Assembly (NCBI GenBank): GCA_022822745.1
Contig: JAJEAO010000114.1
Span: 69,613-133,612 of the forward strand
Direction of reading: 5' to 3'
From: Acidobacteriota bacterium
GTDB taxonomy: Bacteria; Acidobacteriota; Vicinamibacteria; Marinacidobacterales; Marinacidobacteraceae
DNA: 64,000 nucleotides
Part shown: in pieces, positions 2,227 through 51,721 of the stretch
How the letters are laid out: each line of letters begins with the position of its first letter
Numbering within the stretch: the stretch's first letter is position 1
The notes under the pieces: generated by a model
The model's database searches: none
Seen by the model: only the letters and a program-made list of their open reading frames with translations
Told to the model about the DNA's origin: nothing
Translations under genes and position numbers: made by a program

Positions 2227-2231
2227 CACAA

Positions 2232-6357: not shown

Positions 6358-6370
6358 GGCGCCCGGGGCC

Positions 6371-9153: not shown

Positions 9154-9603
9154 ATGGACGCCCGGCCGGACCGCCCCCCGCGGACGGTCGTCTTCCTGTG
9201 CGTGGCGAACTCGGCGCGCAGCCAGCTCGCGGAGGCGGTGGCGAGGCCGATCGCTCCTCCGGGGGTTCGGGTGATGAGCGCGGGCTCGCAGCCCTGGCGG
9301 GTCCACCCGGTCGCGGTCCGGGTGCTCGCCGAGATCGGACTCGATGTCTCGGGCGCCCGCTCCAAGGGCACGGACGAGATCCCGATCGCGGAGGCAGACC
9401 TGGTCGTGACGCTGTGCGCCGAAGAGGTCTGCCCGGTCGTGCCGCCTTCGGTGCGGCGCCTCCACTGGCCGCTTCCCGATCCGGCGGCGGGATGGGGCGA
9501 GGAGGATCTGCTCCGGCGATTCCGGGCCACCCGCGACGAGCTGCGGACGCGGATCGCCGAGCTGTTCGAGCGGGAGTTCGCCCGCGACGCCCCGTCGGAG
9601 TGA
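9154..9603 (+). CDS. low-molecular-weight phosphotyrosine phosphatase / ArsC-family (thioredoxin-type arsenate reductase-like)
   Basis: P-loop CVANSARSQ (CX5R) at the N-terminus and conserved DLVVTLC...C block; 149 aa. Confidence 0.7.
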   Translation: MDARPDRPPRTVVFLCVANSARSQLAEAVARPIAPPGVRVMSAGSQPWRVHPVAVRVLAEIGLDVSGARSKGTDEIPIAEADLVVTLCAEEVCPVVPPSVRRLHWPLPDPAAGWGEEDLLRRFRATRDELRTRIAELFEREFARDAPSE

Positions 9604-9614
9604 TCTGACCCGGT

Positions 9615-20533: not shown

Positions 20534-20544
20534 GAGGCGCGAAC

Positions 20545-26947: not shown

Positions 26948-27022
26948 TGGTGCGCGGTACAGGGTTCGAACCTGTGACTCCCTGCGTGTAAGGCAGGTGC
27001 TCTACCGCTGAGCTAACCGCGC
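26948..27022 (-). tRNA. tRNA-Val (anticodon TAC), CCA encoded
   Basis: Manual fold: acceptor GCGCGGT/ACCGCGC, D-arm GCTC-AGCGGTA-GAGC, anticodon arm CCTGC-CTTACAC-GCAGG, T-arm ACAGG-TTCGAAC-CCTGT, then ACCA. Confidence 0.9.
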
Positions 27023-27086: not shown

Positions 27087-28229
27087 ATGACGACACAACG
27101 GGCGCGGCGGCTCCTCCTCGGCGCCGCCATGGGAGGGGCCGCGGTGGCGGCGGCATTCGTCTTCGCGGCGACGCGGGGCCCCGAGGAGGGCGCGGAGGCG
27201 AAGGCCATCGCCGCGGAAGAAGCCGCCGCTCCGACGCCGGTGACGGTGGTGGAGGCTCGGCGCGGACCGGTGGCCGTTCAGGTGGCGACGACATCCTCGG
27301 TGGAGGCGGAGCGGACCGCGAAAGTGCTGTCGCAGACCTCCGGCGTGCTCACCGAAGTGCGGGTGCGCGAGGGGGATCAGGTCGCGGCCGGTCAGGTGCT
27401 CGCCCGGGTGGATCCGCGGGATCGCCAGCTCGCGCTCGAACAGGCCGAGCTCCGGCTCGCCCGCGCCGAAGCCGAGCTCTCGCGCCAGGCCCGCGCGTTC
27501 GAAGCCGACCTCGTCTCCGAGTACGACTTCGACAAGGCGAAGTTCGATCGCGATCTCGCCGCCTCCGAGCGCGAGACGGCCCGGCTCGAACTCGACCGCA
27601 CCGAGATCCGGGCGCCGTTCGCCGGACGGGTCACCGAAGTCCTCCTCGTCGCCGGGGCACACCTCGATCCGGCGCAGCAGCTTCTGACGCTGAGTGACTT
27701 CGACACGCTCGTCGTTCGGCTCTACCTGCCGGAGCGCGATGTCGTCGGCCTCGCCCCCGGGCAACGGGCGCGAGTGCGCCCCGAGTCCGAGGTCGGCGAG
27801 GCGCTTCCCGGCCGCATCCGCGAGATCAGCCCGGTCGTGGATCCGACGACCGGAACCGTCAAGGTGACCGTCGAGGTCCCCAGTCCTCGTCGCGCTCCGT
27901 CCGGCGCGGCGACGGTGCGGCCGGGGTCGTTCGCGCGCGTGGTGATCGAGACCGGACGCCGCGAGGACGCCGTCCTCGCCCCGAAGCGCGCCGTCATCCA
28001 GTCCGGCGGCGACGCCCACGTGTTCGTGGTCGAGGACGGGCGGGCAATCCGCCGCGCGGTCGCGCTGGGCGTCGAACTCGACGCTCCCGGCGGCGCGCTG
28101 GTCGAACTCGTCACCGGAGACGAGGACCGGATCCTCCCCGGCGCCCGGCTGGTCGTGGCGGGCATGGGTTCGCTGACCCCCGGCGACCCGGTCGAAGTCC
28201 TGAACCCGCCGACCCGACCCGCCGGCTGA
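27087..28229 (+). CDS. RND efflux periplasmic adaptor (membrane fusion protein, HlyD/AcrA family)
   Basis: N-terminal TM/signal, coiled-coil region and beta-barrel/MP domains typical of MFPs (...RVDPRDRQLALEQAELRLARAEAEL...); 380 aa. Confidence 0.8.
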   Translation: MTTQRARRLLLGAAMGGAAVAAAFVFAATRGPEEGAEAKAIAAEEAAAPTPVTVVEARRGPVAVQVATTSSVEAERTAKVLSQTSGVLTEVRVREGDQVAAGQVLARVDPRDRQLALEQAELRLARAEAELSRQARAFEADLVSEYDFDKAKFDRDLAASERETARLELDRTEIRAPFAGRVTEVLLVAGAHLDPAQQLLTLSDFDTLVVRLYLPERDVVGLAPGQRARVRPESEVGEALPGRIREISPVVDPTTGTVKVTVEVPSPRRAPSGAATVRPGSFARVVIETGRREDAVLAPKRAVIQSGGDAHVFVVEDGRAIRRAVALGVELDAPGGALVELVTGDEDRILPGARLVVAGMGSLTPGDPVEVLNPPTRPAG

Positions 28230-28320
28230 TCGCGCCCGTCAGCCCTTCCGCCAGCCACTCCGTCCGACCCGCCGACCGCCGCTTCGTCGGCCTGAAGTCC
28301 ATGCTCCGGGAGGTCTCCGC

Positions 28321-31300
28321 GTGAAATCCCTCATCGCCGGCTGCGTCCGTCGCCCGGTGAGCGTCGCCATGTTCACCGTGGCAGCCTGCGTGTTCGGCCT
28401 GGTGGCGCTCTCGCGCCTGCCGGTGAACCTGCTCCCCGAGATCTCCTACCCGACGCTCACGGTCGAGACCCGGATGCCGGGCGCCGCCCCGATCGAAGTC
28501 GAGACGCTCGTGACCCGTCCCATCGAGGAGGCGGCGTCGGTGACTCCCGGGCTCCGGCGGGTCACCTCCCGCTCGCGGGCCGGGGTCTCGGAGGTGACGC
28601 TCGAGTTCGTCTGGGACACGAACATGGACTTCGCCGGGCTCGATGTCCGGGAGAAGGTGGACTCCGTCGTTCTCCCGGAAGACGCCGAGCGGCCCCGGGT
28701 GCTTCGCTTCGACCCCTCCTCCGACGCGGTGCTCCGACTGGGGGTCTCGGGAGAGCTCCCGCTGTCGCGGCTGCGGGAGTGGACCGAAGAGGAGCTGAAG
28801 AAGGATCTCGACTCGGTCGAGGGAGTGGCGGCGGTCCGGATCGAGGGCGGACAGATCCGCGAGATCCAGGTGGACGTGGACCAGGGACGGCTGGTCGCCT
28901 ACGGGATCACGGTCGCCGAGGTCTCCGACGCCATCGCGGCGGCGAACGTGAACGCCGCCGGGGGGAGCGTCTTCGAGGACGAGGCCCGCTACCTGGTGCG
29001 GACGCTGAACGAGCTGGACACGCTCGACCGGATCGGAGCCACCATCGTGAAGGACGAGGAAGGGCGTCGGGTGCGGGTCCGGGACGTGGCCGAGGTGCGA
29101 TCCGGCTTCCGCGAGCAGGAAGTCATCCTCCGCAACGGCGACGACGAGGGCGTCGAGGTCCGGATCTTCAAGGAGGGCGACGCCAACACGGTCGCCGTCG
29201 CCGGGGCCGTCCGCGAGCGGTTGGACGCGGTCTCGGAGGAGGTGCCCGCGGGCGTCGCGCTCGCCGTGCTGTTCGACCAGTCCGGCTTCATCGAGGAGGC
29301 GATCTCGGAGGTCGTCACGAACGCCTGGCAGGGCGGGCTGCTCGCCATCCTCGTCATCGCGCTCTTCCTGCGCGAGCGGCGGGCGACGACCGTGGTTGCG
29401 CTCGCGATCCCGGTGTCGGTGGTCGCGACCTTCTTCGTGATGGAGCAGATGGGGCTCTCGCTGAACATCATGTCGCTCGGCGGGCTCGCGCTCGGGGTGG
29501 GGATGCTGCTCGACGACTCGATCGTCGTGCTGGAGGCGATCCACCGGCGGAAGGCCGCCGGAGAAGCGGCCCCCGGCGCCGCGGTGGCGGGCGCCGTGGA
29601 GGTCGCCGGACCGGTGGTCGCGTCCACGCTGACCACGGTGGCGGTCTTCCTGCCCATCGTGTTCGTGGAGGGCGTCGCCGGACAGCTCTTCCGGGATCAG
29701 GCGCTCACGGTCTCGATCTCGATCCTCGCCTCGCTCGGCTTCTCGCTGGCGCTGATCCCGGTCCTCGCGGCCCGCGGGGGCGCGGACCTCGCGGCGGCGC
29801 CGGCGGCGAACGATGTCCGGCCCGGACTCTTCGTGCGCCTGCTTCGGGGGTTCCGGATCGGCGTCCGCGGGATCGGCCGCGGACTCGCGTTCCCGTTCCG
29901 GCCCGTGCTCCGGGGCTTCGTCGCCGCCGAGACCGCTCTCTCCCGCGGCTACCCGCCGCTCCTCCGCGCCGCGCTCGCCCGGCCCGCGGCGGTCTTCCTG
30001 CTGGCCGCCGGGCTCCTCGGGGGTACCGCCTTCGTCGGCTGGCGGGGCGTGGGCGTCGAACTCATCCCCCAGCTCGCCCAGGGCGAGTTCCACTTCGACA
30101 TCCACCTTCCCGAGGGCTCGGCGGTCGGCGCCACCGATTCGGTCGCCACCGAGGTCGGGGCCGCCGCGGCTCGGCTTCCCGGCGTCCGGCGGGTCACGAC
30201 GGAGGCCGGCGCCGTCTCCGGCGGCGGCTTCGGCGGCGCCTCCGGCCGCGCCGAGCACCGAGGACGGATCTCGGTGACGATGGAAGCGCCGGACGACGAA
30301 GGCGCCGAGGCGGCGGCGATCGAAGCGGTGCGCTCCGCCCTCGCCTCCCGCCCCGGGCTCCGTTCCGAGTTCGGCCGCCCCTCGTACTTCAGCTTCCGCC
30401 AGCCCGTCGAGGTCGAGGTCTTCGCCGACGAGGCGGGCGCGCTCGAACCGGCGGCGCGGCGCGTCCGCGAGGCGGTCGCCGCGGTCCCGGGACTCGCCGA
30501 TGTGCGTTCCACCGCCGAGGCGGGGAGCCCGGAGATCCGGGTCCGGTTCGAGGCCGACCGGCTCGCCTCCATGGGCCTTTCGGTGGATCGGGCCTCGGAG
30601 GCTCTCCGCGCGAAGCTGCGCGGGCAGGTCGCCACCCGGCTCGACGAGGGCGACCGCCGCATCGAGGTCGTGGTCCGCGGGGGCGACGACCTGCGGACCC
30701 GGGCGACGGCGGTCCCCGAGCTCATCGTGCACGCCGAAGACGCCCGGCCGGTGCTCCTCCGGGCGCTCGGCGAGGCGGAGGTGGGACTCGGGCCCGCCGA
30801 GCTGCGGCGCGTCGGCCAGCGGCCCGCCGTCGTCATCTCGGGGAACCTGGAGGGGACCGATCTCGGCGCCGCCACCGAGGAGATCACGGCCCGGATCGCC
30901 GGCATCGGGCTGCCGCCGGGGGTGACGACCCGGTTCGCCGGACAGCGCGCGGAGATGGAACGGTCGTTCGCGAGCCTCGCCCTCGCCATCGGACTCGCCA
31001 TCTTCCTCGTGTACTTCGTCATGGCCAGCCAGTTCGAGTCGCTGCTCCACCCGTTCCTCATCCTGTTCACGATTCCGCTGGGCGCGATCGGGGTGATCTG
31101 GGCGCTCCTCGTGACCGGGTCGAACCTGAGCGTCATCGTGCTCATCGGGGTCGTGATGCTCGCCGGGATCGTCGTGAAGAACGCCATCGTGCTCGTGGAC
31201 TGCATCAACCGCCTCCGCCGCGAGGGGATGGAGAAGACCGAGGCCATCGTCGCCGCCGGACGGATCCGGCTGCGGCCGATCCTGATGACGACCCTGACCA

Positions 31301-31467
31301 CGATCCTGGGCCTCCTGCCCATGGCGCTCGGGCTGGGCGAGGGGGCCGAGATCCGCGGCCCGATGGCGGTCACGGTGATCGGCGGGCTCCTCGTCTCGAC
31401 GCTGCTGACGCTGGTCGTGATCCCCACCGCCTACCAGGTCGCCGATCGCAGGGAGTTCTCCGCGTGA
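28321..31467 (+). CDS. RND efflux transporter permease (AcrB/MdtB-like), copy 1, GTG start
   Basis: 1048 aa, 12-TM RND architecture, N-terminus MKSLIAGCVRRPVSVAMFTVAA... typical of AcrB family. Confidence 0.85.
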   Translation: MKSLIAGCVRRPVSVAMFTVAACVFGLVALSRLPVNLLPEISYPTLTVETRMPGAAPIEVETLVTRPIEEAASVTPGLRRVTSRSRAGVSEVTLEFVWDTNMDFAGLDVREKVDSVVLPEDAERPRVLRFDPSSDAVLRLGVSGELPLSRLREWTEEELKKDLDSVEGVAAVRIEGGQIREIQVDVDQGRLVAYGITVAEVSDAIAAANVNAAGGSVFEDEARYLVRTLNELDTLDRIGATIVKDEEGRRVRVRDVAEVRSGFREQEVILRNGDDEGVEVRIFKEGDANTVAVAGAVRERLDAVSEEVPAGVALAVLFDQSGFIEEAISEVVTNAWQGGLLAILVIALFLRERRATTVVALAIPVSVVATFFVMEQMGLSLNIMSLGGLALGVGMLLDDSIVVLEAIHRRKAAGEAAPGAAVAGAVEVAGPVVASTLTTVAVFLPIVFVEGVAGQLFRDQALTVSISILASLGFSLALIPVLAARGGADLAAAPAANDVRPGLFVRLLRGFRIGVRGIGRGLAFPFRPVLRGFVAAETALSRGYPPLLRAALARPAAVFLLAAGLLGGTAFVGWRGVGVELIPQLAQGEFHFDIHLPEGSAVGATDSVATEVGAAAARLPGVRRVTTEAGAVSGGGFGGASGRAEHRGRISVTMEAPDDEGAEAAAIEAVRSALASRPGLRSEFGRPSYFSFRQPVEVEVFADEAGALEPAARRVREAVAAVPGLADVRSTAEAGSPEIRVRFEADRLASMGLSVDRASEALRAKLRGQVATRLDEGDRRIEVVVRGGDDLRTRATAVPELIVHAEDARPVLLRALGEAEVGLGPAELRRVGQRPAVVISGNLEGTDLGAATEEITARIAGIGLPPGVTTRFAGQRAEMERSFASLALAIGLAIFLVYFVMASQFESLLHPFLILFTIPLGAIGVIWALLVTGSNLSVIVLIGVVMLAGIVVKNAIVLVDCINRLRREGMEKTEAIVAAGRIRLRPILMTTLTTILGLLPMALGLGEGAEIRGPMAVTVIGGLLVSTLLTLVVIPTAYQVADRREFSA

Positions 31468-34400
31468 GCCTGCCGCGCCTGGCCGTGAACCGGCCGGTCA
31501 CGACCGCCATGGTGCTCCTCAGCACACTGGTTCTCGGCGTCATCTCGTTCGGACGGATCCCGCTCGCGTTCCTGCCCGATGTGGACTTCCCCGGCGTCTT
31601 CGTGACCGTCCCCTACCAGAACGCGAGCCCGGCGCAGGTCGAGCGCGAGATCGTGCGGCCGCTCGAAGAAGCTCTCGCCACGATCCCGGGCGCCCGCCGG
31701 ATCCGCTCCACCGCGGAAGCCGACCAGGCGAGCCTGCAGCTCGAGTTCACCTGGGGCGAGAGCGTGGATGTGGCGCGGGCCAAGGTGTTCGAGGCGGTGG
31801 AGGACGCCCGTCCGGAGCTCCCGGACGATGTGCGCGAGATCCACGTGAACACGTTCTCCACGACGCAGATCCCGATCGTGGAGGCGCGCATCGCGGCGCC
31901 GGGGATGGATCTCTCGGCGAACTACGAGCGGCTCGACCGCCGGGTCGCCGACCCGATCCGGCGCATCCCCGGAGTGGCGCGGGTGGATCTGAACGGGGTC
32001 GAGCCGCGCGAAGTCCGGATCAACCTGCGCGCCGACCGGATCGCCGCCCATCGGGTGGACCTCGGCGATGTCGCCGACCGGGTGCAGAACATGAACCGCA
32101 ACCTCTCGCTGGGCCGGGTGCGGGCGGGAGCGGAGGTCACGCCGGTCCGCGGCTTCGGCGCCCTCTCGGAGATCTCGGAGATCGGATCGCTGCCCCTGAA
32201 CGACGCGGGGCTGACCGTCCGGGACGTCGCCGACGTGACCTGGCGGGAGCCGCCGATCCCCTACGGGAGGCGGCTGAACGACGACGCGGCGGTCGGCCTG
32301 ACGGTCTTCAAGTCGGCGGAAGCGAACACCGTCGAGGTCGCCCGGGCGGTCGTGGAGGAAATCGAGACCGGCATCGCCAGCGATCCCGCGCTCGCCGGAA
32401 TCACCCTGTTCGTCTGGGACGACCAGGCCGCCGAGATCACCGCCGGCCTCGCCGGGATCCGCACGGAAGGACTGCTCGGGGCGCTCCTCGCGATCCTCGT
32501 GCTCTTCCTGTTCCTGCGGCGGCTGGACTCCACGACGATCGTGAGCCTCACGATCCCGATGTCCATCATCGCGACCGCCACGATCCTCTACTTCGCCGGC
32601 AGGTCGCTGAACGTGCTCTCCATGATGGGCATGATGCTCGGGATCGGCCTCCTGGTGGATGACGCCATCGTGGTGCTCGAATCCGTCGTCCGCGAGCACG
32701 CCCGTGGGCTCCCGGCCCGGGTGGCGGCGGTCGTCGGGAGCCGGGCGGTCGCGGGCGCGGTGATCGCCTCGACCGTCACGACCGCGGTCGTGTTCCTGCC
32801 CACCGTGCTCGGGGGGAAGAACGAGATGTCCATCTGGCTGGGCGAGATCGGACTCGCGATCTCGCTCACGATCTTCTGTTCGCTGTTCATCTCGCTCACC
32901 CTGATCCCGCTGGTGAGCTCGCGCCTGCTGGCGCGCCGGCCGTCGGTCCCACCGGCGTGGACGGAGCGGCTCGGCGCCGCCTACCAGCGGGCTCTGCGGT
33001 TCACGCTGCGGCGCCGCTGGATCACGGCCGGGATCGCGGTCGCCTTCCTCGTGACCGCGATCCTCCCCTTCTTCCTCGGACTCTCCACCGCGATGTTCGC
33101 CGGGCTGAACCGGAACCGCATCTTCCTGACCTACGAATTCGCCGACTTCCACTACAAGGAGGACTCGGAGCCGGTGGTGATCGCGGTGGAGAGCGAGATC
33201 GCCGGGATCGCGGACCGGATCGGCGTGGACTCGGTGTACAGCTACTTCGGCGAGAACGAGGCCCAGACGGTGATTTCGCTGGGCGCCGAGCACATCTCCG
33301 ACGAGGAAGGGAAGGCGATCCGGGAGACGGTGCGGGAAGCGCTCCCGGCGCTGCCCGGCGTCCGGATCGTGTTCGGGGACGACGACCAGGAGACCGGCGG
33401 CGAGAGCCTGTTCTTCCGGGTCCGCTTCTACGGGGAGGATTCCGGTCGCTTCCCGGAGGTGCTCGACACGGCGGAGACGCGTCTGCGCGGCATCGAGGGC
33501 GTCACCGACATCCGGAGCCAGCAGGACGACGCCCGCCGGGAGGTCGTCGTGCGGCCCCGCGCCGAGGCGGCGGCGCGGGTCGGCATCACCCCGCGCGACC
33601 TCTCGGAGATCTTCGGCTTCAGCCTCGGCGGCCGGCCGCTCCGGCGGTTCCAGACCGCCGATCGCGAGACCGAGGTGCTGCTCACCATGTCGCAGCAGGA
33701 CATCTCGCGGGTCGAGGATCTGCGCGCGTTCACCCTGATCGGCGACGACGGCGCCCCGGTGCGCCTCGGCGACCTCGCCGACTTCGAGATCGTGGAGCGG
33801 CCCCGCGCCATCTCCCGGGTGGACCGGCGGGTGATGAGCACGCTCCGCGCCGCCTACGAGGGAGAGAACTGGGAGGCGACGCGCGAGACGATCGAGGCCG
33901 AGATGGACGCCCTCGCGCTCCCCGACGGGTTCACCTGGTCCTTCGGAGACCGGATCGCGCAGCAGGACCGGGATCTCCAGACGATGCTCCTGAACTACCT
34001 GCTGGCGCTCATGCTGATCTACATCGTCATGGCGGCGCAGTTCGAGTCGCTGATCCACCCGCTGGCGATCCTGATCTCGATTCCGTACGCGATCTGGGGA
34101 GCGGCGTGGGTGCTGCTCGCGACGAACAGCCCGTTCAACCTGATGGCGCAGATCGGGCTCCTGATCCTCATGGGGATCGTGGTGAAGAACGGGATCGTCC
34201 TGATCGACCACGTGAACCGGTTGCGCCGCGAAGGCATGGAGCGCACGGAGGCGCTGGTCACGGGCGGGCGGGACCGCCTCCGTCCCATCCTGATGACCGC
34301 GGCGGCGACGATGCTGGCGCTGGTCCCGATGGCCGTGGGGCGCACCGGGCTCGACGGGCTCTACTACTTCCCGCTGGCCCGGACGGTGATCGGCGGGCTG

Positions 34401-34544
34401 GCCGCCTCGACCGTCCTGACGCTGCTCATCCTCCCGTTCTTCTACACCCTGCTGGACGATCTGGCGACCGCGGCCCGCCGGGCGTGGCGCCGGGCGACGC
34501 CCCCCGCGCCGACGGTCCGGCCCCGGGAGGCGACAGCGGGCTGA
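31464..34544 (+). CDS. RND efflux transporter permease (AcrB/MdtC-like), copy 2, GTG start overlapping upstream stop (GTGA)
   Basis: 1026 aa; ...SLPRLAVNRPVTTAMVLLSTLVLG... RND N-terminus. It is encoded in the +2 frame of the giant composite ORF 28779..34544. Confidence 0.8.
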   Translation: MSLPRLAVNRPVTTAMVLLSTLVLGVISFGRIPLAFLPDVDFPGVFVTVPYQNASPAQVEREIVRPLEEALATIPGARRIRSTAEADQASLQLEFTWGESVDVARAKVFEAVEDARPELPDDVREIHVNTFSTTQIPIVEARIAAPGMDLSANYERLDRRVADPIRRIPGVARVDLNGVEPREVRINLRADRIAAHRVDLGDVADRVQNMNRNLSLGRVRAGAEVTPVRGFGALSEISEIGSLPLNDAGLTVRDVADVTWREPPIPYGRRLNDDAAVGLTVFKSAEANTVEVARAVVEEIETGIASDPALAGITLFVWDDQAAEITAGLAGIRTEGLLGALLAILVLFLFLRRLDSTTIVSLTIPMSIIATATILYFAGRSLNVLSMMGMMLGIGLLVDDAIVVLESVVREHARGLPARVAAVVGSRAVAGAVIASTVTTAVVFLPTVLGGKNEMSIWLGEIGLAISLTIFCSLFISLTLIPLVSSRLLARRPSVPPAWTERLGAAYQRALRFTLRRRWITAGIAVAFLVTAILPFFLGLSTAMFAGLNRNRIFLTYEFADFHYKEDSEPVVIAVESEIAGIADRIGVDSVYSYFGENEAQTVISLGAEHISDEEGKAIRETVREALPALPGVRIVFGDDDQETGGESLFFRVRFYGEDSGRFPEVLDTAETRLRGIEGVTDIRSQQDDARREVVVRPRAEAAARVGITPRDLSEIFGFSLGGRPLRRFQTADRETEVLLTMSQQDISRVEDLRAFTLIGDDGAPVRLGDLADFEIVERPRAISRVDRRVMSTLRAAYEGENWEATRETIEAEMDALALPDGFTWSFGDRIAQQDRDLQTMLLNYLLALMLIYIVMAAQFESLIHPLAILISIPYAIWGAAWVLLATNSPFNLMAQIGLLILMGIVVKNGIVLIDHVNRLRREGMERTEALVTGGRDRLRPILMTAAATMLALVPMAVGRTGLDGLYYFPLARTVIGGLAASTVLTLLILPFFYTLLDDLATAARRAWRRATPPAPTVRPREATAG

Positions 34545-34689
34545 CCTCCCGCGTCCGGCCACGGAACGCGAACGCCCCGCCGGACATCCCGCTGGTCTCG
34601 ACCGGGACACCGGATCGGACACGACAACTCCGATTCGTCATGGATCTCATTGATTTCCCTTATGATGTCCTGGACACTCTTGGGGACAG

Positions 34690-35904
34690 ATGCGAGGACG
34701 CGACAGGGGTCGGCAGTACCGGCGGACCCACCCGTGGATCCGGTTCGGGCTGAACCCCCGTGACGCCCCCGCCCGGGTCTGGCTCCTGCTCGGACAGGTG
34801 GCCGCCCGCGCCGAGTTGCTGGCCGAGGCGCTGATCCCCGAAAGCGAGTCCAGGAAGCTCCATCGGACCTTCCTGGTGAAGGGGGCGCGAGCCACCGCCG
34901 CGATCGAAGGGAACACGCTGACCGAGGCGGAGGTCGAGGAGCGCCGTCTCAAGCAGCGGAACCTGCCGCCGTCCCGGGCCTATCTCGGGGTCGAGGTGGA
35001 CAACGTGCTCGCGGCGTACAACCGGATCGCCGAGGAGGTTCTCGCCGGTGGCGCGGCGCGGCTGGACCGAGGCCGGATCGAGGACTGGAACCGACGGATC
35101 CTCGACGGCCTCGAGGGCCACATCGCCGAGGAGGCCGTTCCCGGCGTCGTCCGCTCCCATCCCGTCGTCACGGGCCGCTACCGCGGCGCCCCCGCCGAGG
35201 ACTGCGTCCGCCTGCTGGAGAGACTTGTCCACTGGCTGGAGAGGGACATCGAGGTTCCGGCGACCGCGCGCCGGGGCGACCGCATGGCGCTGGGCGTCCT
35301 CCGCGGCATCCTCGCCCACCTCTGGCTCGCCTGGATCCACCCCTTCGGCGACGGGAACGGCCGGGTCGCGCGTCTCGCGGAGCTGTTCTTCCTGCTGCGG
35401 GCCGGCCTGCCGACGCCCGCCTGCCACCTCCCGAGCAACCACTACTACCGGACCCGGGAGGAGTACTACCGCCAGCTCGATCGCTCCTCGCGGGCAGACC
35501 GCGGCCGGGGAGATCCATGGGGGTTCGTCCTCTACGCGCTCGAAGGACTGGTGGACGGACTCCGGGAGCAGGCATCGCTCGTGGAGCGGGAGCAGCGCAG
35601 GCTCGCCTGGCCCGGCTTCGTGCGCGACCGGATCGGCGGGCGTCCCGGCCCCGCGCGGGAACGGCGGACGAACCTGGCGCTCGTCCTCGGAGGCGCAGAG
35701 GCGCCGCTCACCCGAGCGGCTCTCCTCGATCACGCGCGTCTCGCCCGCGCCTACGCCCGGCGAACGGGCAAGACGCTCACCCGCGACCTGAACTGGCTGA
35801 TCGAGCGCGGCCTCGCGGAGCGTTCCGGGAACGGATTTCGCGCGCGCATCGAACGGCTGCAGGCGCTCCGGCCGCGGCAGGCTGGGGAGGAGGGATCGGC
35901 ATGA
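34690..35904 (+). CDS. Fic-family protein (adenylyltransferase/AMPylator fold)
   Basis: Canonical Fic motif HPFGDGNGRVAR (HxFx[D/E]GNGRxxR), and an N-terminal region with the SS-IEG-like ...TAAIEGNTLT...; 404 aa. A low-GC leader lies upstream. Confidence 0.8.
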   Translation: MRGRDRGRQYRRTHPWIRFGLNPRDAPARVWLLLGQVAARAELLAEALIPESESRKLHRTFLVKGARATAAIEGNTLTEAEVEERRLKQRNLPPSRAYLGVEVDNVLAAYNRIAEEVLAGGAARLDRGRIEDWNRRILDGLEGHIAEEAVPGVVRSHPVVTGRYRGAPAEDCVRLLERLVHWLERDIEVPATARRGDRMALGVLRGILAHLWLAWIHPFGDGNGRVARLAELFFLLRAGLPTPACHLPSNHYYRTREEYYRQLDRSSRADRGRGDPWGFVLYALEGLVDGLREQASLVEREQRRLAWPGFVRDRIGGRPGPARERRTNLALVLGGAEAPLTRAALLDHARLARAYARRTGKTLTRDLNWLIERGLAERSGNGFRARIERLQALRPRQAGEEGSA

Positions 35905-37157
35905 CCGGGACCGGGCCTCTCGAGCGGTTCCTCGAGACGCGGGACCGGACCCTGCGGCTGGTGGCGCCGCTGGCGGCGGAGGACTTCGTCGCAGCCGGCG
36001 GCGGCGACGCGAGTCCGGTCAAGTGGCATCTCGGGCACACGACCTGGTTCGTGGAGCGCTACTTCCTCGAGACCGGCGGGTTTCGCTGGCGGCGTCCCGC
36101 CCCCGAGTACGACGACCTGTTCGATCCCGGGCGCCGGGCCTTCCACCGGAATCGCGCCCGCTGGACCCGGCCGACCGTCGCCGAAGTGTTCGCCTACCGA
36201 CGCGCCGTGGAGGAAGCGGTCGGGAACGCCGCCGGCGCCGGCCTCGCGCCCGGACCGGAAGCGGCGCTCGATCTCGCCACGCGCCACGAGGCGCTCCACC
36301 AGGAGCTGATCCTCGCAGAGCTGAAGCACCTCCTGTGGCAGAACCCCCTGCGCCCCGCCTACCGCGAGCCGTGGGAGCGCCGGCGGCCGAAGACGAACCC
36401 GGCGCCGCTGCGGTTCATCCCGTTCCCCGGCGGCGAGGTCGGCATCGGCCACGACGGGCCGGGGTTCTCCTTCGCGAACGAGAGGCCGCGGCGCCGCCGG
36501 CTCCTCGCGCCCTTCCAGCTCGCCAACCGGCTGGCGACGAACGGCGAGTTCCTCGAGTTCATCGCGGAGGGCGGCTACCGGACGCGGACGCTCTGGCCGG
36601 CCGACGGCTGGGAAGCCCGCGAAGCCCGCGGATGGGAGGCGCCGCTCTACTGGGAGCGGGAGGGCGACGACTGGACGGAATTCACTCTCGAAGGGCGCCG
36701 GCCCCTCGATCCCGCCGCGCCGGTCGGGCACGCGAGCTGGTTCGAGGCGCAGGCCTTCGCCCGCTGGCGGGGTTGCCGGCTGCCGCGCGAGACGGAGTGG
36801 GAGAGCGCCGCGGCGCGGGCGGACGTCACCGAAGCCAACGTGCTGGAGACCGGCCGTCTCGCGCCGCTCCCGGCGCCGGGGGATCGGGCGGCGCCCGGAA
36901 GGAGGTCTCCCGCCCAGCTCTTCGGGGATCTGTGGGAATGGACCGGAAGCGCCCACCTCCCCTACCCCGGCTACCGGCCGGAGGCGCGGCTTCCGGGCGA
37001 TCCGACGACGCGCTTCCTCACCACGGGGCCGGTGGTTCGAGGCGGCTCCTGCCTGACCTCCGCGCTGCTGGTCCGGGCGACGACCCGCCACCACATCCCC
37101 GCCGGCGACCGGCGCCACGCCACCGGGATCCGTCTCGCCCGCGATCCGCGGGTCTGA
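35901..37157 (+). CDS. EgtB-like sulfoxide synthase family protein (DinB_2 N-domain + FGE-sulfatase C-domain)
   Basis: DinB-like HLGHTTWF and H-x3-H-x-E (RHEALHQELI) iron-ligand pattern, then the FGE-type C-terminus (...GDLWEWT...RGGSCLTS...ATGIRLARD). ATG overlaps the Fic stop (ATGA). Confidence 0.65.
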   Translation: MTGTGPLERFLETRDRTLRLVAPLAAEDFVAAGGGDASPVKWHLGHTTWFVERYFLETGGFRWRRPAPEYDDLFDPGRRAFHRNRARWTRPTVAEVFAYRRAVEEAVGNAAGAGLAPGPEAALDLATRHEALHQELILAELKHLLWQNPLRPAYREPWERRRPKTNPAPLRFIPFPGGEVGIGHDGPGFSFANERPRRRRLLAPFQLANRLATNGEFLEFIAEGGYRTRTLWPADGWEAREARGWEAPLYWEREGDDWTEFTLEGRRPLDPAAPVGHASWFEAQAFARWRGCRLPRETEWESAAARADVTEANVLETGRLAPLPAPGDRAAPGRRSPAQLFGDLWEWTGSAHLPYPGYRPEARLPGDPTTRFLTTGPVVRGGSCLTSALLVRATTRHHIPAGDRRHATGIRLARDPRV

Positions 37158-37186
37158 TCGCGGCGTCTCGCCGAAGCACCCGGGAG

Positions 37187-37263
37187 CTGGTCGGGACGGC
37201 CGGATTTGAACCGACGACCACTTGCACCCCAAGCAAGTGCGCTACCAGACTGCGCCACGTCCC
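37187..37263 (-). tRNA. tRNA-Pro (anticodon GGG), CCA encoded
   Basis: Manual fold: acceptor CGGGACG/CGTCCCG, D-arm GCGC-AGTCTGGTA-GCGC, anticodon arm CTTGC-TTGGGGT-GCAAG, T-arm GTCGG-TTCAAAT-CCGGC, then ACCA. Confidence 0.9.
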
Positions 37264-37322
37264 GACGGGCGTCGAAGAGAGGGCGGGATTCTACGCCGCC
37301 GCGGGAATCCGATGCGCCCGGG

Positions 37323-37835
37323 TCAGGGGAGCCCGAGCCGCTTGCGCTCCGGGCGGGAAGCGCTGCCCCGGGCGCCACCCTTCGCTCCCGCCGGACTCTT
37401 CGTCTTCGCTCCGACCCCGACGGCGGCCGGATCGAGCAGCGCCGCGAGCCCGGCGTCGGTGGCCTCCATGATGGCCAGCGCCTCCCGGACGCCGAGGAGG
37501 AGCGCTTCCGATCGGGGCGACGACGGCGGAGGGGGCGGGGGCGGCACCGGAAACGAGGACAGCTTGCCCCGGGCGCGCTTCTTCGCCGAGAGGCGGCGCA
37601 CCGCCCCGGCGGTCGTATAGCCCTCGTGGTGGAGGAGACGCTGGATCTCCCGCACCATCTCGATGTCCGCCCGGCGGTAGAGCCGCTGTCCGGCGTCGTT
37701 CTTCTTGGGGCTGAGCGTCGGGAACTCCATCTCCCAGTGCCGCAGCGTGTAGGGCTGCACCCCGGTGATCTCGCTCACTTCCCCGATGCGGAAGAAGAGC
37801 TTGTTCGGGATCTTGAGCGGAGGCTGAGTGCTCAT
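37323..37835 (-). CDS. MerR-family transcriptional regulator
   Basis: N-terminal HTH FRIGEVSEITGVQPYTLRHWEMEF; start chosen at internal Met MSTQPPL of ORF 37323..38465. Confidence 0.7.
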   Translation of the reverse strand: MSTQPPLKIPNKLFFRIGEVSEITGVQPYTLRHWEMEFPTLSPKKNDAGQRLYRRADIEMVREIQRLLHHEGYTTAGAVRRLSAKKRARGKLSSFPVPPPPPPPSSPRSEALLLGVREALAIMEATDAGLAALLDPAAVGVGAKTKSPAGAKGGARGSASRPERKRLGLP

Positions 37836-37930
37836 GCTGTCGGAGGACGGGGCCCGATGGGACGCCACCCGAGCCGAGCGCGGCGTCCGATCGCTTCGAG
37901 CCGCCTGAACCGGATGCGAAGGCGGCGGAG

Positions 37931-39352
37931 TCAGGAGTCTCCGCGCGGCGTCGCGATGCGGCCCGGGGCCGATTGTATGGCAGGGGCCGCCCTCCCCCGG
38001 CGACGCGACGGGCGGCGCCCCTCCACCGACAGGCGGATCGGAACGCCGGCGAAGCCGTAGCGGCGGCGCACCGCCCCGAGCAGGTATCGCGGGTAGGTGG
38101 GGAGCAGATCCTTGCGGCGACAGTTCACGAACACCCGGAAGCGCGGCGGCGAGACCGCAGCCTGGGTGCCGTAGAGGATCTTCACTTCGCGGCCGGTCCG
38201 GGAGCGCGGAGCGAATCGGGCGGCGGCCTCCGCGAGAAAGCGGTTCACCTCGGCGGTGGCGATCCGCCGCCCCCGCTCGGCGTGGACGCCGAGGGCCGCG
38301 TTCCAGATCGCGCCGACGCCCTGGCCGGTCTTCGCCGAGATGCGGCGGACCGGAGCGTGGGCGATGTGGCGCAGGGTCTCCCGGACTTCGAGCCGGACCT
38401 CGGCCCACCGCTCGGCGCGCGACGTCACCAGGTCCCAGCGGTTGGCCAGCACCACGACGCCGCAACCGGCGTCCTCGATCCGGCGGGCGATGGCCGCGTC
38501 GGAGGTCTTCGGTCCCTCGACCGCGTCCACCAGGAGCAGCGAGACATCGGCTCGCCGGATTGCCTTCCCGGCGAGCAGGACCGCCAGCGCATCGGCCTCC
38601 TCGAAGCCGCCGGAGACGCCCCGGCGGCGGGGGCCGCGCCGGATGCCCGCCGTGTCCACCAGGACGACCGGACGACCTTCCACGACGAGGCTCTCGTCCA
38701 CCGGGTCCCGGGTGGTGCCCGGGATGGAAGACACGAGCGATCGCTCGCCCCCGACGAGGCGGTTCAGGAGGGTGGACTTCCCGGCGTTCGCGCGACCCAC
38801 GATCGCGATCCGGACCGGGGACGCCGCGGCCTCCGGCGCCGGTTCGGGGCCGGTGGCGGCGAGGATTTCGCGCAGCGCGTCGAGGAGTTCGGAGACGCCG
38901 AGCCCGTGCTCGGCGGAGATCGGCACGGGCTCTCCGAACCCGAGGCCGTGGAAATCGCTGGCGGCGGCCTCCGGATCCGACTCGGCCTTGTTCACGACCA
39001 GGAGCACCGGCGGCTGGTTCCGCGCCCGGCGAAGGAGTTCCGCGAGGTGTTCATCCGCCGTCGTGAGCCCGGCGCGCCCGTCCACGAGGAACAGGATGGC
39101 GTCGGACCCGGTGGCGGCGGCCAGCGCCAGGGCGCGGACCTCGCGGGCGAACGCATGGGTGGCGTCGTCCGCGGTGACGCCCCCGGTGTCGTGGAGCAGG
39201 AAGGTCTCGCCGCGCCATTCCACCGGCTCCTTGCGCCCGTCCCGCGTCGAGCCGGGACGCGCATGGACGATCGCCGGACGCCCGCCCACCAGCCGGTTGA
39301 AGAGCGTGGACTTCCCGACGTTGGGGCGACCGAAGAGAGCGGCGCGCTTCAC
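37931..39352 (-). CDS. der: ribosome-biogenesis GTPase Der (EngA), two tandem GTPase domains + KH-like C-terminus
   Basis: Two G-domains with [12 protein letters not shown] / [13 protein letters not shown]1 motifs, DTGG/DTAG G3 and NKAE/NRWD G4 motifs. Confidence 0.9.
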
Positions 39353-48565: not shown

Positions 48566-49158
48566 GGTCTGGAGCCATGCTGAGACAACTACACATCCGA
48601 GACCTGCTGTGCGGGAACGTCGGCGACACTTTCGTCTATGACTGGGGGCCGGTAGAGAAGCACTCGGCGGAGCGCGGTCTGAACCTTGAGGGCTTTCTGG
48701 TGATGCCGATTGCCGACCGGCTCCACCGCAAGAAGCTTCGGTCCCCCGTCCTCTTCTGGTACGCCCCCCTTATGCCCGCCAGCTTTGTCGTCACAGTTAC
48801 CTGCCGTCGTGCTGTCGATTTCATGGATCCTCTCCACGGCCTGCCGGGATACCGGGCCTTCGGCAGCGATCTGGTGCCACCAATCGCCCGTCCGTTCCTC
48901 TACTGGACCGGTAGGGACGTGATTCGAACGCATCCCAGACTGGCTGGAGGAAATGAGTCTCCGTATCTCGTGGACGACTTCGCAAACGGGTTCGGGCTCA
49001 CGTCTGGAGAAGTAAGTAAGGAGTGGTACGAATCGGTTCGTCAGAACCCTGCGGATCACTTCGAGTACGCCGCGGTTCCACAGGTGCCCGACGAGTTCCG
49101 TGTCTGGAAGAACCGACGGGTAAAACTCTTCCACGCGGTCTGCATCATCCCGTCCTGA
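48562..49158 (+). CDS. hypothetical protein (198 aa) in a lower-GC (about 57-58%) segment
   Basis: ATG overlaps the stop of the upstream gene (ATGA). Codon usage is visibly AT-richer than its neighbours; no recognisable domain. Confidence 0.5.
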   Translation: MRSGAMLRQLHIRDLLCGNVGDTFVYDWGPVEKHSAERGLNLEGFLVMPIADRLHRKKLRSPVLFWYAPLMPASFVVTVTCRRAVDFMDPLHGLPGYRAFGSDLVPPIARPFLYWTGRDVIRTHPRLAGGNESPYLVDDFANGFGLTSGEVSKEWYESVRQNPADHFEYAAVPQVPDEFRVWKNRRVKLFHAVCIIPS

Positions 49159-49267
49159 CTTGGCCGGATGGTTGGCACCGCAACGTTCCCACACCGTCCG
49201 TGTGCGCACTTGGCGCTGGGCCGACTCCACGAGTCACCTGGCGTAGGGGAGTGAGACGACCCCGGCC

Positions 49268-49381
49268 ATGAGTGGATTCCCAGTAGCGGCTTGGGTACTG
49301 TTGATTGTGGCGGTGGTGCCGGGGATGATGCTCGCGCTCTGGAACGCCGCCCGCGGCCGGCTCGCCTCCCGTCGTGGCTGA
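49268..49381 (+). CDS. small membrane peptide (37 aa) upstream of and overlapping the solute symporter start
   Basis: MSGFPVAAWVLLIVAVVPGMMLALWNAARGRLASRRG is a single TM helix. The arrangement is analogous to small membrane proteins found upstream of sodium:solute symporter genes (yhdT-panF in E. coli; ActP-like SSF transporters commonly have an upstream DUF485 gene). Confidence 0.35.
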   Translation: MSGFPVAAWVLLIVAVVPGMMLALWNAARGRLASRRG

Positions 49382-50906
49382 GAACTGGCCCCTCTGGGCG
49401 GTTCTGATCGGCTACCTGTCGATCCTGTTCGGGCTGGCCATCTGGAGCTCGCGGAGCACGCGCGACCTCGCCGGCTACTACCTCGCCGGCCGGAAGCTCC
49501 CGGCGGCGGTCGTCGGATTCTCGGCCGCGAGCACCGGAGAGAGCGCGTGGCTGCTGCTCGGGCTGACCGGGATGGGCTACCTGCTCGGAGTGAACGCGCT
49601 GTGGATCGTGTTCGGCGAGGTGCTCGCCACTGCGGTCGCCTGGACCTTCATCGGTCCCCGGTTCAAGGCGCTCGCCGACCGCTACCGCGCCATCACGGTC
49701 GCCGACTGGATGGAGAAGCGGTTCGGCGACCGGCGGCAGATCCTTCGCATCACCGGTTCCGTCGTCATCCTGGTCATGGCGGGCACCTACATGGCCGCCC
49801 AGCTCACCGGCTCCGGGAAGACCTTCGAGTCCTTCCTCGGGATCCCCTACGAGGCCGGCGTCCTGCTGGGCGCGGTCGTCATCCTGTTCTACACCAGCTT
49901 CGGCGGCCTCAAGGCGGTCGCGTGGAGCGATCTCATCCAGGCCACGCTCATGGCGGCGGCCCTGGTGGCGCTCCCGCTGGTGGCGATCCGCGAGATCGGA
50001 GGCCTCTCCGTCCTCGCCGAGCGCCTCGCCGCCGCCGACCCCGGCCTCCTTCGGCCGCTCGGAACCTCCGGCGCCAGCGCGAGGGGATTCGCCGATGTGG
50101 CCAGCCACATGGGCGTCGGGCTCGCTTTCCTCGGCGCTCCGCAGCTCCTCGTCCGGTTCATGGCCTCCCGGGACCGGCGGACGCTGTCCGACGGGGGGGT
50201 CATGGCGGCCCTCGTGATCATCCTGTTCGACCTCGGCGCCGTGCTCACCGGGATGGCGGGGCGGGTGCTCTACCCGCAGATCGCCGATCCGGAAGGGATC
50301 CTCCCGCTGCTCGCTTCCGACCTGATGCCCCCGGTGATCACCGGGCTGTTCCTGACCGCGGTGCTGGCCGCGATCATGTCCACCGCGGACTCGGTCCTGC
50401 TGCTCGCGTCCTCCGCGGTCGTCCGCGACTTCTTCGAGAAGCTGCTCGGCCCTCGCCACCGGAACCCTCTCGCGCCCGGACTCTCCGGCGCCGTGGCGCG
50501 ACTCGCCGCCGATGGCCGGCGGCTGGCTCGCTTCGGCAAGGCGGTCACGCTGGTCCTCGGGATCATCGGCATCGGCGTGGCGCTGCCCGAGGTCCGGGTC
50601 ATCTTCTTCTTCGTGCTGTTCTCGTGGTCCGGTCTCGGATGCGCGTTCGCGCCGGTGGCCATCCTCGGCATCTTCTGGAGGCGCATGACGCTGCCGGGGG
50701 CGGTCGCCGGGATGATCGCCGGATTCGGAACCTCGGTGGTGTGGTACCTGTGGGGCAAGCCGGCGTTCCACGATCTCTACGAGATGGTCGTGGGGTTCGC
50801 GGCGGGATTCCTCGCGGCGATCGTCGTGAGCCTGCTGACCCGGCCCGATCCCGAGGGAGCGCGGCAGGTGGACTACGCGGCCGAGTGGGCGCGCCGCCGG
50901 TCGTGA
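49374..50906 (+). CDS. sodium:solute symporter family (SSF) transporter
   Basis: About 13-TM protein with SSF signature regions (...GGLKAVAWSDLIQA..., ...MSTADSVLL...); GTG start. Confidence 0.8.
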   Translation: MAENWPLWAVLIGYLSILFGLAIWSSRSTRDLAGYYLAGRKLPAAVVGFSAASTGESAWLLLGLTGMGYLLGVNALWIVFGEVLATAVAWTFIGPRFKALADRYRAITVADWMEKRFGDRRQILRITGSVVILVMAGTYMAAQLTGSGKTFESFLGIPYEAGVLLGAVVILFYTSFGGLKAVAWSDLIQATLMAAALVALPLVAIREIGGLSVLAERLAAADPGLLRPLGTSGASARGFADVASHMGVGLAFLGAPQLLVRFMASRDRRTLSDGGVMAALVIILFDLGAVLTGMAGRVLYPQIADPEGILPLLASDLMPPVITGLFLTAVLAAIMSTADSVLLLASSAVVRDFFEKLLGPRHRNPLAPGLSGAVARLAADGRRLARFGKAVTLVLGIIGIGVALPEVRVIFFFVLFSWSGLGCAFAPVAILGIFWRRMTLPGAVAGMIAGFGTSVVWYLWGKPAFHDLYEMVVGFAAGFLAAIVVSLLTRPDPEGARQVDYAAEWARRRS

Positions 50907-51721
50907 CCGCGTGGGCGCGGCTTCTGGCCGCCGTCCCGCTCCTCGCGTGGAGCTGGAGCTGCGCCGCGGATGGCCCCACGAGCCCCGACGCGCCCGGCGA
51001 CGGGGGCGCCGGGAGGATCGTCCGGGTCGAAGTCCTCTCGCAGCCGGCGGCGCGCGACACCTACCTGGTCGGCGAGGAAGTGCGGCTCGGGGCCTGGGTG
51101 GGCGGCGCCAGCGCCGTGGCGTGGGAGGGGTCGGTCTGGCTGGTGTTCGACCTCGGGCTCGCCAGCGAACCCGCCGAGCTGGTCGCGGCCGAGGCGGAGC
51201 GGCTCGAGTTCGCCTACCGGGTGCGGCGGGGCGACTACGACGGCGACGGGATCTCGGCGCCGGAGGCAGAGCTGCGGTTCGGGCCGGGGGCCTCGCTCAC
51301 CTCGGACGGAGCGGCCCTGGACCCGGCGGTTCCCGCCCTCGAAACGCAGCCGGAACACCGGGTGTACGGAAGGCGCGAACCGGGGGAAACGGTGGTGTTC
51401 ACCGCGGCGACCGAACAGCTCCCGGCCCCTCTCGCGGCGAACGAGCAGCCGGTGGGCTGCCGGGACCGGGAAGTGGTGGAGGACCTCGTCGGCGCCGTGC
51501 TCGGCGGAGATCTCGCCTCCGCCGCCGCCCGCTACACCGCCGCCTTCGCCGCGCGGGAGTGCGCGGAACTCGTCTCGGGCGAGGAAGCGATCTTCCTCTC
51601 GGCCGCCGTGGTTGAACAGGACGCGGAGATCGTGGACCTCGTTCTCGCCTACGGGCCCGCCCGGGTCGCGGGCGGCGTGGAGACGGCGAACTGGTGGACC
51701 CTCGCCGACTTCGTCGAGTGA
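50903..51721 (+). CDS. hypothetical secreted protein/lipoprotein (272 aa)
   Basis: GTG start overlapping the symporter stop (GTGA); N-terminal hydrophobic segment ...LLAAVPLLAWSWSCAADG...; no known domain. Confidence 0.45.
   Translation: MTAWARLLAAVPLLAWSWSCAADGPTSPDAPGDGGAGRIVRVEVLSQPAARDTYLVGEEVRLGAWVGGASAVAWEGSVWLVFDLGLASEPAELVAAEAERLEFAYRVRRGDYDGDGISAPEAELRFGPGASLTSDGAALDPAVPALETQPEHRVYGRREPGETVVFTAATEQLPAPLAANEQPVGCRDREVVEDLVGAVLGGDLASAAARYTAAFAARECAELVSGEEAIFLSAAVVEQDAEIVDLVLAYGPARVAGGVETANWWTLADFVE

Follow-up and report, generated by a model that had tools for sequence, protein, structure and literature searches.

Here we describe a locus in a 64,000-nt stretch of DNA (hereafter the window; 71.6% GC overall) from a genome of the Vicinamibacteria (Acidobacteriota), in which the gene for a Fic protein of 404 amino acids (aa; 34690-35904, + strand) overlaps a second gene on the same strand, encoding a 418-aa protein (35901-37157) that resembles the ergothioneine sulfoxide synthase EgtB and is referred to below as EgtB-like. 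The reading that we favour, with a probability of about 0.6, is that a SoFic-like Fic cassette occupies a variable slot beside an orphaned and remodelled type II EgtB, and that the two neighbours are functionally unrelated. According to this proposal the Fic gene and its low-GC leader (~34545-35904) would constitute a small, separately exchanged cassette lodged between an RND efflux operon and the next resident gene, and the 418-aa gene would descend from a type II EgtB whose egtD partner has been lost. The initial annotation of this DNA had taken the two genes as a joint Fic and EgtB system on an islet at a tRNA gene; that claim does not hold, and the lead can be dropped. The locus offers a natural type II EgtB that is devoid of egtD, of the catalytic tyrosines and of the hercynine pocket, yet keeps its iron site and is under selection.

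The variable slot becomes apparent from a comparison of related loci. The order tRNA-Val, membrane-fusion protein (MFP), first and second RND permease (RND1 and RND2), variable interval and EgtB-like gene is common to L001, L003, L019, L002 and L010, and in L001, L003 and L019 the succession RND, Fic, EgtB-like, MerR and Der is the same as in the window. The interval between RND2 and the EgtB-like gene, the slot, holds a single Fic gene in the window, L001, L003 and L019. In L010, which derives from a marine metagenome, the slot is empty and RND2 is followed by 153 bp and then by the EgtB-like gene. In L002 it is enlarged to a small defence-type island (4494-10640) that encodes an AAA_15/21 ATPase (442 aa) with matches to the defence models NsnB and PDC-M55A, a 147-aa protein, three Fic proteins and a 38-aa open reading frame (ORF); the second of the three Fic genes is the orthologue of the window Fic, and the third is a true SoFic (PADLOC, 1.9e-103). 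Because the slot is empty in L010 and enlarged in L002 while the order is otherwise kept, the EgtB-like gene belongs to the conserved backbone and the slot ahead of it is variable.

A recombination signature in two near-identical relatives delimits the unit that moves. The DNA of L001 and L003 is 98-100% identical in RND2, EgtB-like, MerR and Der, and falls to 72-92% identity across exactly the leader and the Fic gene (L001 7799-9297), only to return to 98% from the EgtB-like start codon onwards. The synonymous divergence (dS) of the same pair is 0.33 for Fic compared with 0.09 for EgtB-like and 0.05 for RND2. Since the divergent block stops at the start of the EgtB-like gene, the exchanged unit comprises ~1.4 kb (leader plus Fic) and not the 2.6-kb pair. 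Beyond this small clade, Fic homologues of 45-62% identity (L004, L005, L011, L012 and L016) have unrelated neighbours and no EgtB-like gene. The expectation that the pair would be conserved together is thus borne out in part: it recurs in L001, L003, L019 and L002, which are close relatives that share the entire neighbourhood by descent, and it occurs only in such relatives. The slot upstream of the EgtB-like gene represents a clean, small defence-gene hotspot with cassette exchange in the poorly studied Vicinamibacteria.

The L002 island has further features of its own. Its 147-aa protein looks PIN-like by eye, and the 38-aa ORF that follows the true SoFic sits in the same place as the AS1 antitoxin beside E. 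coli SoFic. The first Fic protein of the array (P0009, 6508-7719) has its catalytic His replaced by Gln (QPFGDGNGP) and its inhibitory Glu by Gly; judging from these residues it is probably a catalytically dead Fic kept beside two intact ones. In the related genome L014, the stretch just upstream of a canonical egtB-egtD pair (1321-5528) encodes Vsr, a Dcm-type DNA methylase, a ThiF-family protein, small ORFs and an AAA fragment, and because of these genes variable, defence-like genes are also found in front of an ordinary egtB. The 3' end of the EgtB-like gene together with the spacer before tRNA-Pro (37158-37187; L001 10497-10797) makes up a second small hypervariable spot, with EgtB-like lengths of 418, 426, 432 and 439 aa in near-identical genomes and a nucleotide identity of 14-46% between L001 and L003.

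The same comparisons bear on the idea that the two genes form a functional two-gene module, in which the EgtB-like protein would serve a Fic toxin as its antitoxin, sensor or co-effector in a manner akin to AS1 downstream of E. coli SoFic or to FGE-fold type VI immunity proteins. The genes share a strand and an ATGA overlap in the window, L001, L003 and L019, and the EgtB-like gene occupies the position of the SoFic antitoxin (PMC12249575). A precedent exists in FGE-fold proteins that now serve as immunity proteins without enzymatic function (bioRxiv 10.1101/2021.05.21.445229), and the substitutions R103H, N414H and F415H are confined to the Fic-bearing lineages and absent from the Fic-less L010. 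However, the EgtB-like protein of L010 already has the deletion of the catalytic tyrosine pair described below (the YY deletion), Q156L and the PP changes without any Fic beside it. In L002 the EgtB-like gene is separated from the Fic array by the small ORF and a gap, in L001 and L003 Fic alleles have been swapped without the supposed partner, and Fic relatives at 45-62% identity never adjoin an EgtB-like gene. The window Fic moreover has its own inhibitory helix in cis, and the EgtB-like protein has no PADLOC match. We therefore regard such a module, and with it the functional pairing proposed in the initial annotation, as distinctly improbable. Highly doubtful, too, is the more specific proposal that the EgtB-like protein was recruited by the Fic toxin, a SoFic-like AMPylase to which it would be coupled in translation, as a modulator or antitoxin that senses iron/O2 or thiols; if true, an enzyme of antioxidant biosynthesis would have been recycled into a new two-gene module for defence or stress.

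The overlap itself was correctly recognised at the outset: direct reading of the sequence places the ATGA, in which the Fic stop and the EgtB-like start coincide, at 35901-35904 on the + strand, and L001, L003 and L019 have the same arrangement. The EgtB-like start, ATGAC(G/C)GG, is identical in L002, where no gene overlaps it. The last ~11 Fic codons are poorly conserved and cover the EgtB-like ribosome-binding site, GGGGAGGAGG. In the mechanism that we propose, the Fic frame would run on across this ribosome-binding site until it meets the TGA inside the ATG-ACx start, and the overlap would be a by-product of compaction. Tight packing of the cassette onto a resident gene explains the overlap, and hence a shared function is not required. 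As it stands, the EgtB-like gene is probably co-transcribed with Fic.

Could the pair nevertheless be an islet of 2.6 kb at the 3' end of tRNA-Pro, bounded on the far side by a degenerate att-like repeat (34592-34618), as had been suggested? The adjacent tRNA-Pro(GGG) is indeed there (37188-37264, - strand; ARAGORN and Rfam) with its 3' end facing the pair, a low-GC junction lies on the opposite side, and the repeat bears a weak resemblance to the tRNA end (p about 0.03). When the first 45 bases of tRNA-Pro as read on the + strand, which correspond to its 3' part, were locally aligned to the spacer, the best alignment at 34592-34618 scored 12, a value equalled or exceeded by 2.8% of 1,618 other 156-nt windows (mean 8.5, sd 1.4). 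A gapless repeat finder did not include the stretch among its reported repeats, and it returned many chance repeats of equal quality within that 3-kb region, one of them shared by the Fic coding region and the tRNA. At the same spacer of L001 and L003 the stretch is deleted or different, despite the same gene arrangement. The resemblance is chance: a chance-level score combined with the lack of conservation in close relatives means that the att remnant is not real.

Other properties of the interval are equally at odds with an islet. Fic and EgtB-like are the sole ORFs within 34545-37187, where no integrase or recombinase was found, and their GC content (72.8% for Fic, 74.9% for EgtB-like) and GC content at third codon positions (GC3; 0.88 and 0.91) reveal no foreign composition. 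The EgtB-like gene is an old resident in the canonical egtB position, syntenic with RND2 in L002 and L010, where tRNA-Pro is absent, and the variable unit consists of leader and Fic alone. An empty site with tRNA-Pro flanked directly by the RND genes did not turn up either, since L010, the only Fic-less relative, keeps EgtB-like beside RND2 and has no tRNA-Pro. The locus thus resembles tRNA-integrated genomic islands in its adjacency to a tRNA 3' end and in a compositionally odd far junction, and differs from them in that an integrase, a significant direct repeat and a foreign composition are all absent and that one of its genes is an ancestral resident. Taken together, the islet has next to no probability. 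The tRNA-Pro gene after EgtB-like is confirmed in L001 and L003, and L019 has the same MerR/Der right flank. In L002 and L010 it was not found downstream of EgtB-like; a PQQ-repeat gene is present instead, directly after EgtB-like in L010 and beyond two minus-strand genes in L002. Synteny with the distant relatives breaks at tRNA-Pro, which is a later rearrangement breakpoint and not an integration site for the pair.

The low GC content of the leader, for its part, is real. The 145-bp intergenic spacer between RND2 and Fic (34545-34689, + strand) has 54.5% GC over 34590-34690 and 48% over 34620-34690, and ranks among the three 100-nt stretches of lowest GC in the 64 kb. Its low-GC core (34620-34689) is probably the Fic promoter and 5' untranslated region; a scan of 34300-37500 with the sigma-70 consensus yielded no match. 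The leader sequence GTTGATTTCCC...GGGGACAnATG, located to the right of the supposed att stretch, is kept in L001 and L003. Just 5' of the Fic ATG an inverted repeat, TGTCC (34666-34670)...GGACA (34672-34676 and 34684-34688), overlaps a Shine-Dalgarno-like GGGGA, and equivalent repeats of the form GTGTCC(CC)...GGGGACA(C) are found in L001, L003 and L019. RNA folding predicts a hairpin in the Fic leader in all four relatives, which is significant against shuffled sequences in L001 only. The inverted repeat could be an operator, or else an RNA hairpin that occludes the ribosome-binding site.

The product of the cassette is a class II Fic enzyme. The Fic ORF (HPFGDGNGRVAR) matches the Pfam Fic family (E 1.9e-09) and contains, in agreement with the initial annotation, the canonical catalytic motif: H217-PFGDGNGRVA-R228 (35338-35373) fits HxFx(D/E)GN(G/K)RxxR. 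P218, F219, D221-G224 and R228 are identical in 15 of 15 aligned Fic homologues, and H217, G220 and R225 in 14 of the 15, with L002 Fic-A (P0009) having Q at H217 and P at R225. Class II Fic proteins are defined by an inhibitory motif in cis, (S/T)xxxE(G/N) (class definition summarised in PMC12249575), to which the N-terminal T69-AAIE73-G-N (34894-34914) conforms. The C terminus also contains a conserved segment, TGKTLTRDLNWL...GYRA, that can be aligned with the SoFic C-terminal domain. The presence of the inhibitory motif within Fic itself rules out a class I toxin-antitoxin pair, in which the inhibitory helix is provided in trans.

SoFic has been reported to act as a single-gene anti-phage system (bioRxiv 10.1101/2022.05.11.491447); it is toxic through AMPylation and is accompanied in E. 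coli by the small downstream antitoxin AS1 (PMC12249575). The PADLOC SoFic model matches the window Fic with E 1.9e-42 and 144 bits over model positions 42-340 of 361, and the closest PDB matches are Fido, FICD and SoFic proteins. The window Fic shares with SoFic (PDB 3EQX, 9VJC) the inhibitory motif in cis, the full catalytic motif and the type of C-terminal domain, and its relative in L002 adjoins a true SoFic and a defence-type ATPase. It differs from SoFic in its low similarity (quantified below), in the absence of a Pfam Fic_N match and in the lack of a small AS1-like ORF downstream, the next gene being the overlapping EgtB-like gene. By sequence the window Fic is therefore a relative of SoFic and not an orthologue. 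It belongs to a family of its own of ~400 aa, whose few annotated matches are metagenome-assembled genomes of the Gemmatimonadota and whose matches in genome collections are Vicinamibacteria; relatives at 47-75% identity reside on complete chromosomes of uncultured Vicinamibacteria (Acidobacteriota). With ratios of nonsynonymous to synonymous divergence (dN/dS) of 0.20-0.34, which like all such values given here are rough because dS is compressed at ~90% GC3, the gene is being maintained. On the strength of the SoFic analogy and the L002 context, we infer that the protein would be an auto-inhibited AMP-transferase, acting as a toxin or abortive-infection defence protein once its inhibition is relieved.

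The second gene, in turn, encodes a protein with the fold and iron site of EgtB and a substantially altered active centre. Pfam identifies DinB_2 (PF12867) and FGE-sulfatase (PF03781) domains, and the pattern of iron ligands reported earlier, H...HxxxHxE, is present as H43/H46 ... H129-E-A-L-H133-Q-E135. The ligands H46 (36036-36038), H129 (36285-36287) and H133 (36297-36299) are kept, and they are invariant in 121 aligned sequences. The best PDB match is CthEgtB (E 1.7e-90, 42-45% identity) with an alignment gap exactly at SYYEA; the AlphaFold2 (AF2) model has a pLDDT of 83, with low confidence in the remodelled loops, and superimposes on 6o6m and 6qki with Foldseek TM values of 0.88-0.91. 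The scores of the protein fall below the cut-offs of the SenA (276 vs 420) and OvoA (88 vs 400) models.

Residue roles were assigned using the composite-motif scheme (PMC11030361), a review (PMC10903977) and a study of OvoA (PMC8943887). In type II EgtB, including CthEgtB, Tyr93/Tyr94 form a catalytic and essential pair (PMC10903977, PMC8943887). The window protein has lost this pair through a lid-loop deletion of SYYEA between P76 and G77 (36126-36131), which also occurs in P0121-P0125, and the position equivalent to Tyr377 of the type I enzymes is Pro. One of the two thiol-binding arginines is kept. In the pocket, Q156 is replaced by L132, Y385 by P368, N414 by H397, F415 by H398 and F416 by I399. 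The composite motif, which comprises 17 positions in EgtB-II (xSHHYYRRHQHxYNFFx; ovoselenol study, PMC11030361), reads SHH--HRHLHPPHHID in the window compared to the canonical SHHYYRRHQHxYNFFx. Mutation of its positions 13-15 (Y, N, aromatic) switches OvsA to the use of hercynine (PMC11030361), and the residues that decide hercynine acceptance are P, H and H in EgtB-like. An alignment of 77 canonical type II sequences has 148 columns with a conservation of 90% or more; EgtB-like departs from 33 of them, and the replacements cluster in the lid loop, the HEQQH helix, the 380-393 loop and the 407-423 segment. Many of the replaced columns are fixed to a single new residue in all six clade members; M50, F67, F415, W422 and Q423, once invariant, are now variable within the clade.

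The motif SHH--HRHLHPPHH[ILV]D occurs in five of the 120 best homologue clusters in addition to the window protein, and the L010 protein (P0125) is intermediate. Further type-II-like motifs without YY turn up here and there among the 50%-identity representatives; the window clade has no separate representative among these. The window protein falls outside the six named motif classes and within the ~11% of the family flagged as uncharacterised and possibly endowed with new chemistry. A large clade annotated as EgtB (P0129-P0162; L015 6001-8405), one cluster of which has 195 members, has a motif of about RHHSDSRHQHFSHVLA; its members may represent a functional EgtB subtype, so far uncharacterised, that relies on another catalytic acid.

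Comparison with characterised enzymes helps to frame what the protein may do. CthEgtB from Chloracidobacterium thermophilum (PDB 6O6L, 6O6M, 6QKI and 8QF6) belongs to the same phylum and shares the two-domain fold of DinB_2 and FGE-like modules, and its H62/H153/H157 iron site corresponds to H46/H129/H133 of the window protein; it lacks the lid-loop deletion of 5-6 residues, the pocket changes, the replacement of 20-odd other invariant positions and the absence of an adjacent egtD that set the window protein apart. Closest in terms of catalytic residues are MthEgtB Y377F and CthEgtB Y93F/Y94F, which likewise combine an intact iron site with the loss of catalytic tyrosine. These are laboratory point mutants with an intact hercynine pocket, whereas the loss in the window protein is natural and goes together with a rebuilt pocket. 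Tyr-to-Phe variants of EgtB retain almost exclusively an activity similar to that of cysteine dioxygenase (PMC10903977, PMC8943887). To judge from its residues, the EgtB-like protein has probably kept the capacity to bind iron and to turn over O2 together with a thiol, and has probably ceased to make ergothioneine sulfoxide. Our best guess for its chemistry is thiol dioxygenation (cysteine to cysteine sulfinate), because this is the default chemistry of tyrosine-less EgtB mutants, or else a reaction with some other acceptor. Since divergent active-site motifs in this family have already yielded new chemistry (ovoselenol), the clade is a defined candidate for either a thiol dioxygenase of natural origin or an enzyme with new C-S-forming activity.

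The ancestry of the gene is evident from its position. At L014 a canonical egtB (with the YY motif, 54% identical) is followed by egtD, a PQQ protein, a small ORF, Disulph_isomer, Tmk and HolB. At L010 the EgtB-like gene is followed by a PQQ protein (83% identical to that of L014), a small ORF, Disulph_isomer, Tmk and HolB, and egtD is missing. Because the two loci share their downstream genes, EgtB-like is the positional orthologue of a normal egtB that has lost egtD. In a neighbour-joining tree the window clade groups with other YY-less clades; as this grouping may be due to long-branch attraction, the origin rests on positional orthology. The initial annotation had noted that egtD is not nearby and that an ergothioneine pathway was therefore doubtful, and both points are sustained: no egtD was found in the 64-kb window (tblastn; Pfam search of mid-size ORFs) or in the L001, L002, L003 and L010 loci, and the protein retains neither the catalytic tyrosines nor the residues of the hercynine pocket. 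The complete chromosomes of the lineage contributed no member to the ten best multi-member EgtD clusters or to the singletons of comparable identity, and the L014 genome, which served as positive control, was recovered; this is good evidence, if not proof, that the lineage is without a close EgtD. A test for an unlinked egtD by means of the 'longest_contig' of EgtD matches was dropped, as this column describes the cluster representative only and hid the EgtD of L014.

In the window lineage, then, egtD was lost, and the enzyme changed rapidly thereafter while keeping its fold and three-histidine iron site. The accelerated divergence follows from an identity to distant canonical EgtB-II of 46%, as opposed to 57% for the nearest canonical relatives. 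Purifying selection nonetheless acts on the gene: its dN/dS is roughly 0.2-0.3 within the clade and 0.4-0.5 in comparison with L010, values two to four times those of RND2 (0.07-0.16) and well below 1. Its ORFs are intact in six lineages (416-439 aa), with up to 40% protein difference and no frameshift or stop.

These data also speak to the proposal that EgtB-like is a decaying, functionless relic whose frame is still open owing to recency or to polar effects on expression. The loss of the partner gene, the accelerated divergence and the elevated dN/dS relative to RND2 would be expected of a relic, as would the variability of M50, F67, F415, W422 and Q423 and the low AF2 confidence in the remodelled loops. 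The intact ORFs, the dN/dS well below 1, the invariant iron ligands and the many positions fixed to one new residue point the other way. New constraint fits the fixed residues and intact ORFs better than simple decay, and we consider a relic rather improbable.

A number of observations weigh against the reading favoured here. All Fic-bearing genomes are close relatives, so that the case against a functional link depends on L010, L002 and a single recombination signature; four genomes retain both the overlap and the co-orientation, which fits a functional operon as well. The window Fic shares ~24% identity with the true SoFic of L002, reaches 31 bits in the NCBIfam SoFic equivalog NF046030, whose cut-off is 550, and owes its assignment to defence to homology only; the neighbourhoods of its 50%-identical relatives do not clearly qualify as defence islands. 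The NCBIfam EgtB equivalog TIGR03440 passes the EgtB-like protein (389.2 bits vs a cut-off of 360), the absence of egtD elsewhere in the window's genome was tested only indirectly, via cluster members, and the dN/dS values are rough, as stated above. Finally, the P0129-P0162 clade (e.g. P0140, L015) lacks Tyr93/Tyr94 and carries N414H/F415V/F416L, yet egtD directly follows its EgtB gene. Because this egtD-linked, YY-less clade exists, loss of the tyrosine pair alone is no proof of lost ergothioneine chemistry.

An alternative is that the 418-aa protein would still be a working ergothioneine sulfoxide synthase of an uncharacterised subtype, supplied with hercynine by an unlinked EgtD or by import and using a different catalytic acid. 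The score above the TIGR03440 cut-off, the identity of 42-45% and TM of 0.9 to CthEgtB, the retention of the iron triad and of a thiol-binding arginine, the egtD linkage of a related YY-less clade and the purifying selection all agree with this alternative. It has to contend with the fact that both the type II Y93/Y94 pair and the type I Y377-equivalent are missing, that all three hercynine-determinant positions are replaced and that egtD is lost at the orthologous locus, with none of the top EgtD clusters having yielded a member from the complete chromosomes of the lineage. What separates the two YY-less groups is a set of positions, Q156, D218, Y369, H407, Y412, W422 and Q423, which the egtD-linked clade keeps and the window clade has also lost. 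We judge a working synthase to be unlikely, and prefer to view the protein as a remodelled descendant; its passing score serves as a warning that the NCBIfam EgtB 'equivalog' model over-annotates.

The flanks of the locus are made up of conserved genes. To the left, a tRNA-Val (26948-27022, - strand) precedes a tripartite RND efflux operon (27144-34544, + strand), the conserved left flank, which consists of the MFP gene (27144-28229; Pfam HlyD_3/HlyD_D23) and the permease genes RND1 (28321-31467) and RND2 (31464-34544), both with ACR_tran matches in orthologous loci. RND2 of the window is 95% identical to that of L001/L003, 89% to that of L002 and 86% to that of L010. To the right, beyond tRNA-Pro, genes for a MerR-family regulator (37323-37835, - strand; Pfam MerR_1) and the GTPase Der/EngA (37931-39352, - strand) form a housekeeping flank (37323-39352), and their orthologues in L001/L003 are 83-90% identical to those of the window. 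Rfam detected nothing but the two tRNAs.

Elsewhere in the window, two further regions rank among the lowest-GC 100-nt stretches: one at 48921-49071 (52.5% GC), within a gene-free gap of ~800 bp (48566-49373), and another at ~19401 (19401-19500); Rfam had no match in 48566-49373 or 19401-19500. Several ORFs (330, 672, 534, 278 and 275 aa; 16390-17382, 18515-22149, 50885-51721 and 52214-53041) have coding-type GC3 and no Pfam family. Lastly, three loci have egt genes immediately after the genes of a tripartite efflux pump, an adjacency that could be coincidence or reflect a link between efflux and ergothioneine: L015 (1671-8405) has the order ABC-MacB-MFP-EgtB-EgtD with MFP and EgtB overlapping by 4 bases, L020 (311-4937) has MacB-MFP-EgtD-PQQ with no EgtB in between, and the window lineage (27144-37157) has MFP-RND-RND-EgtB-like.

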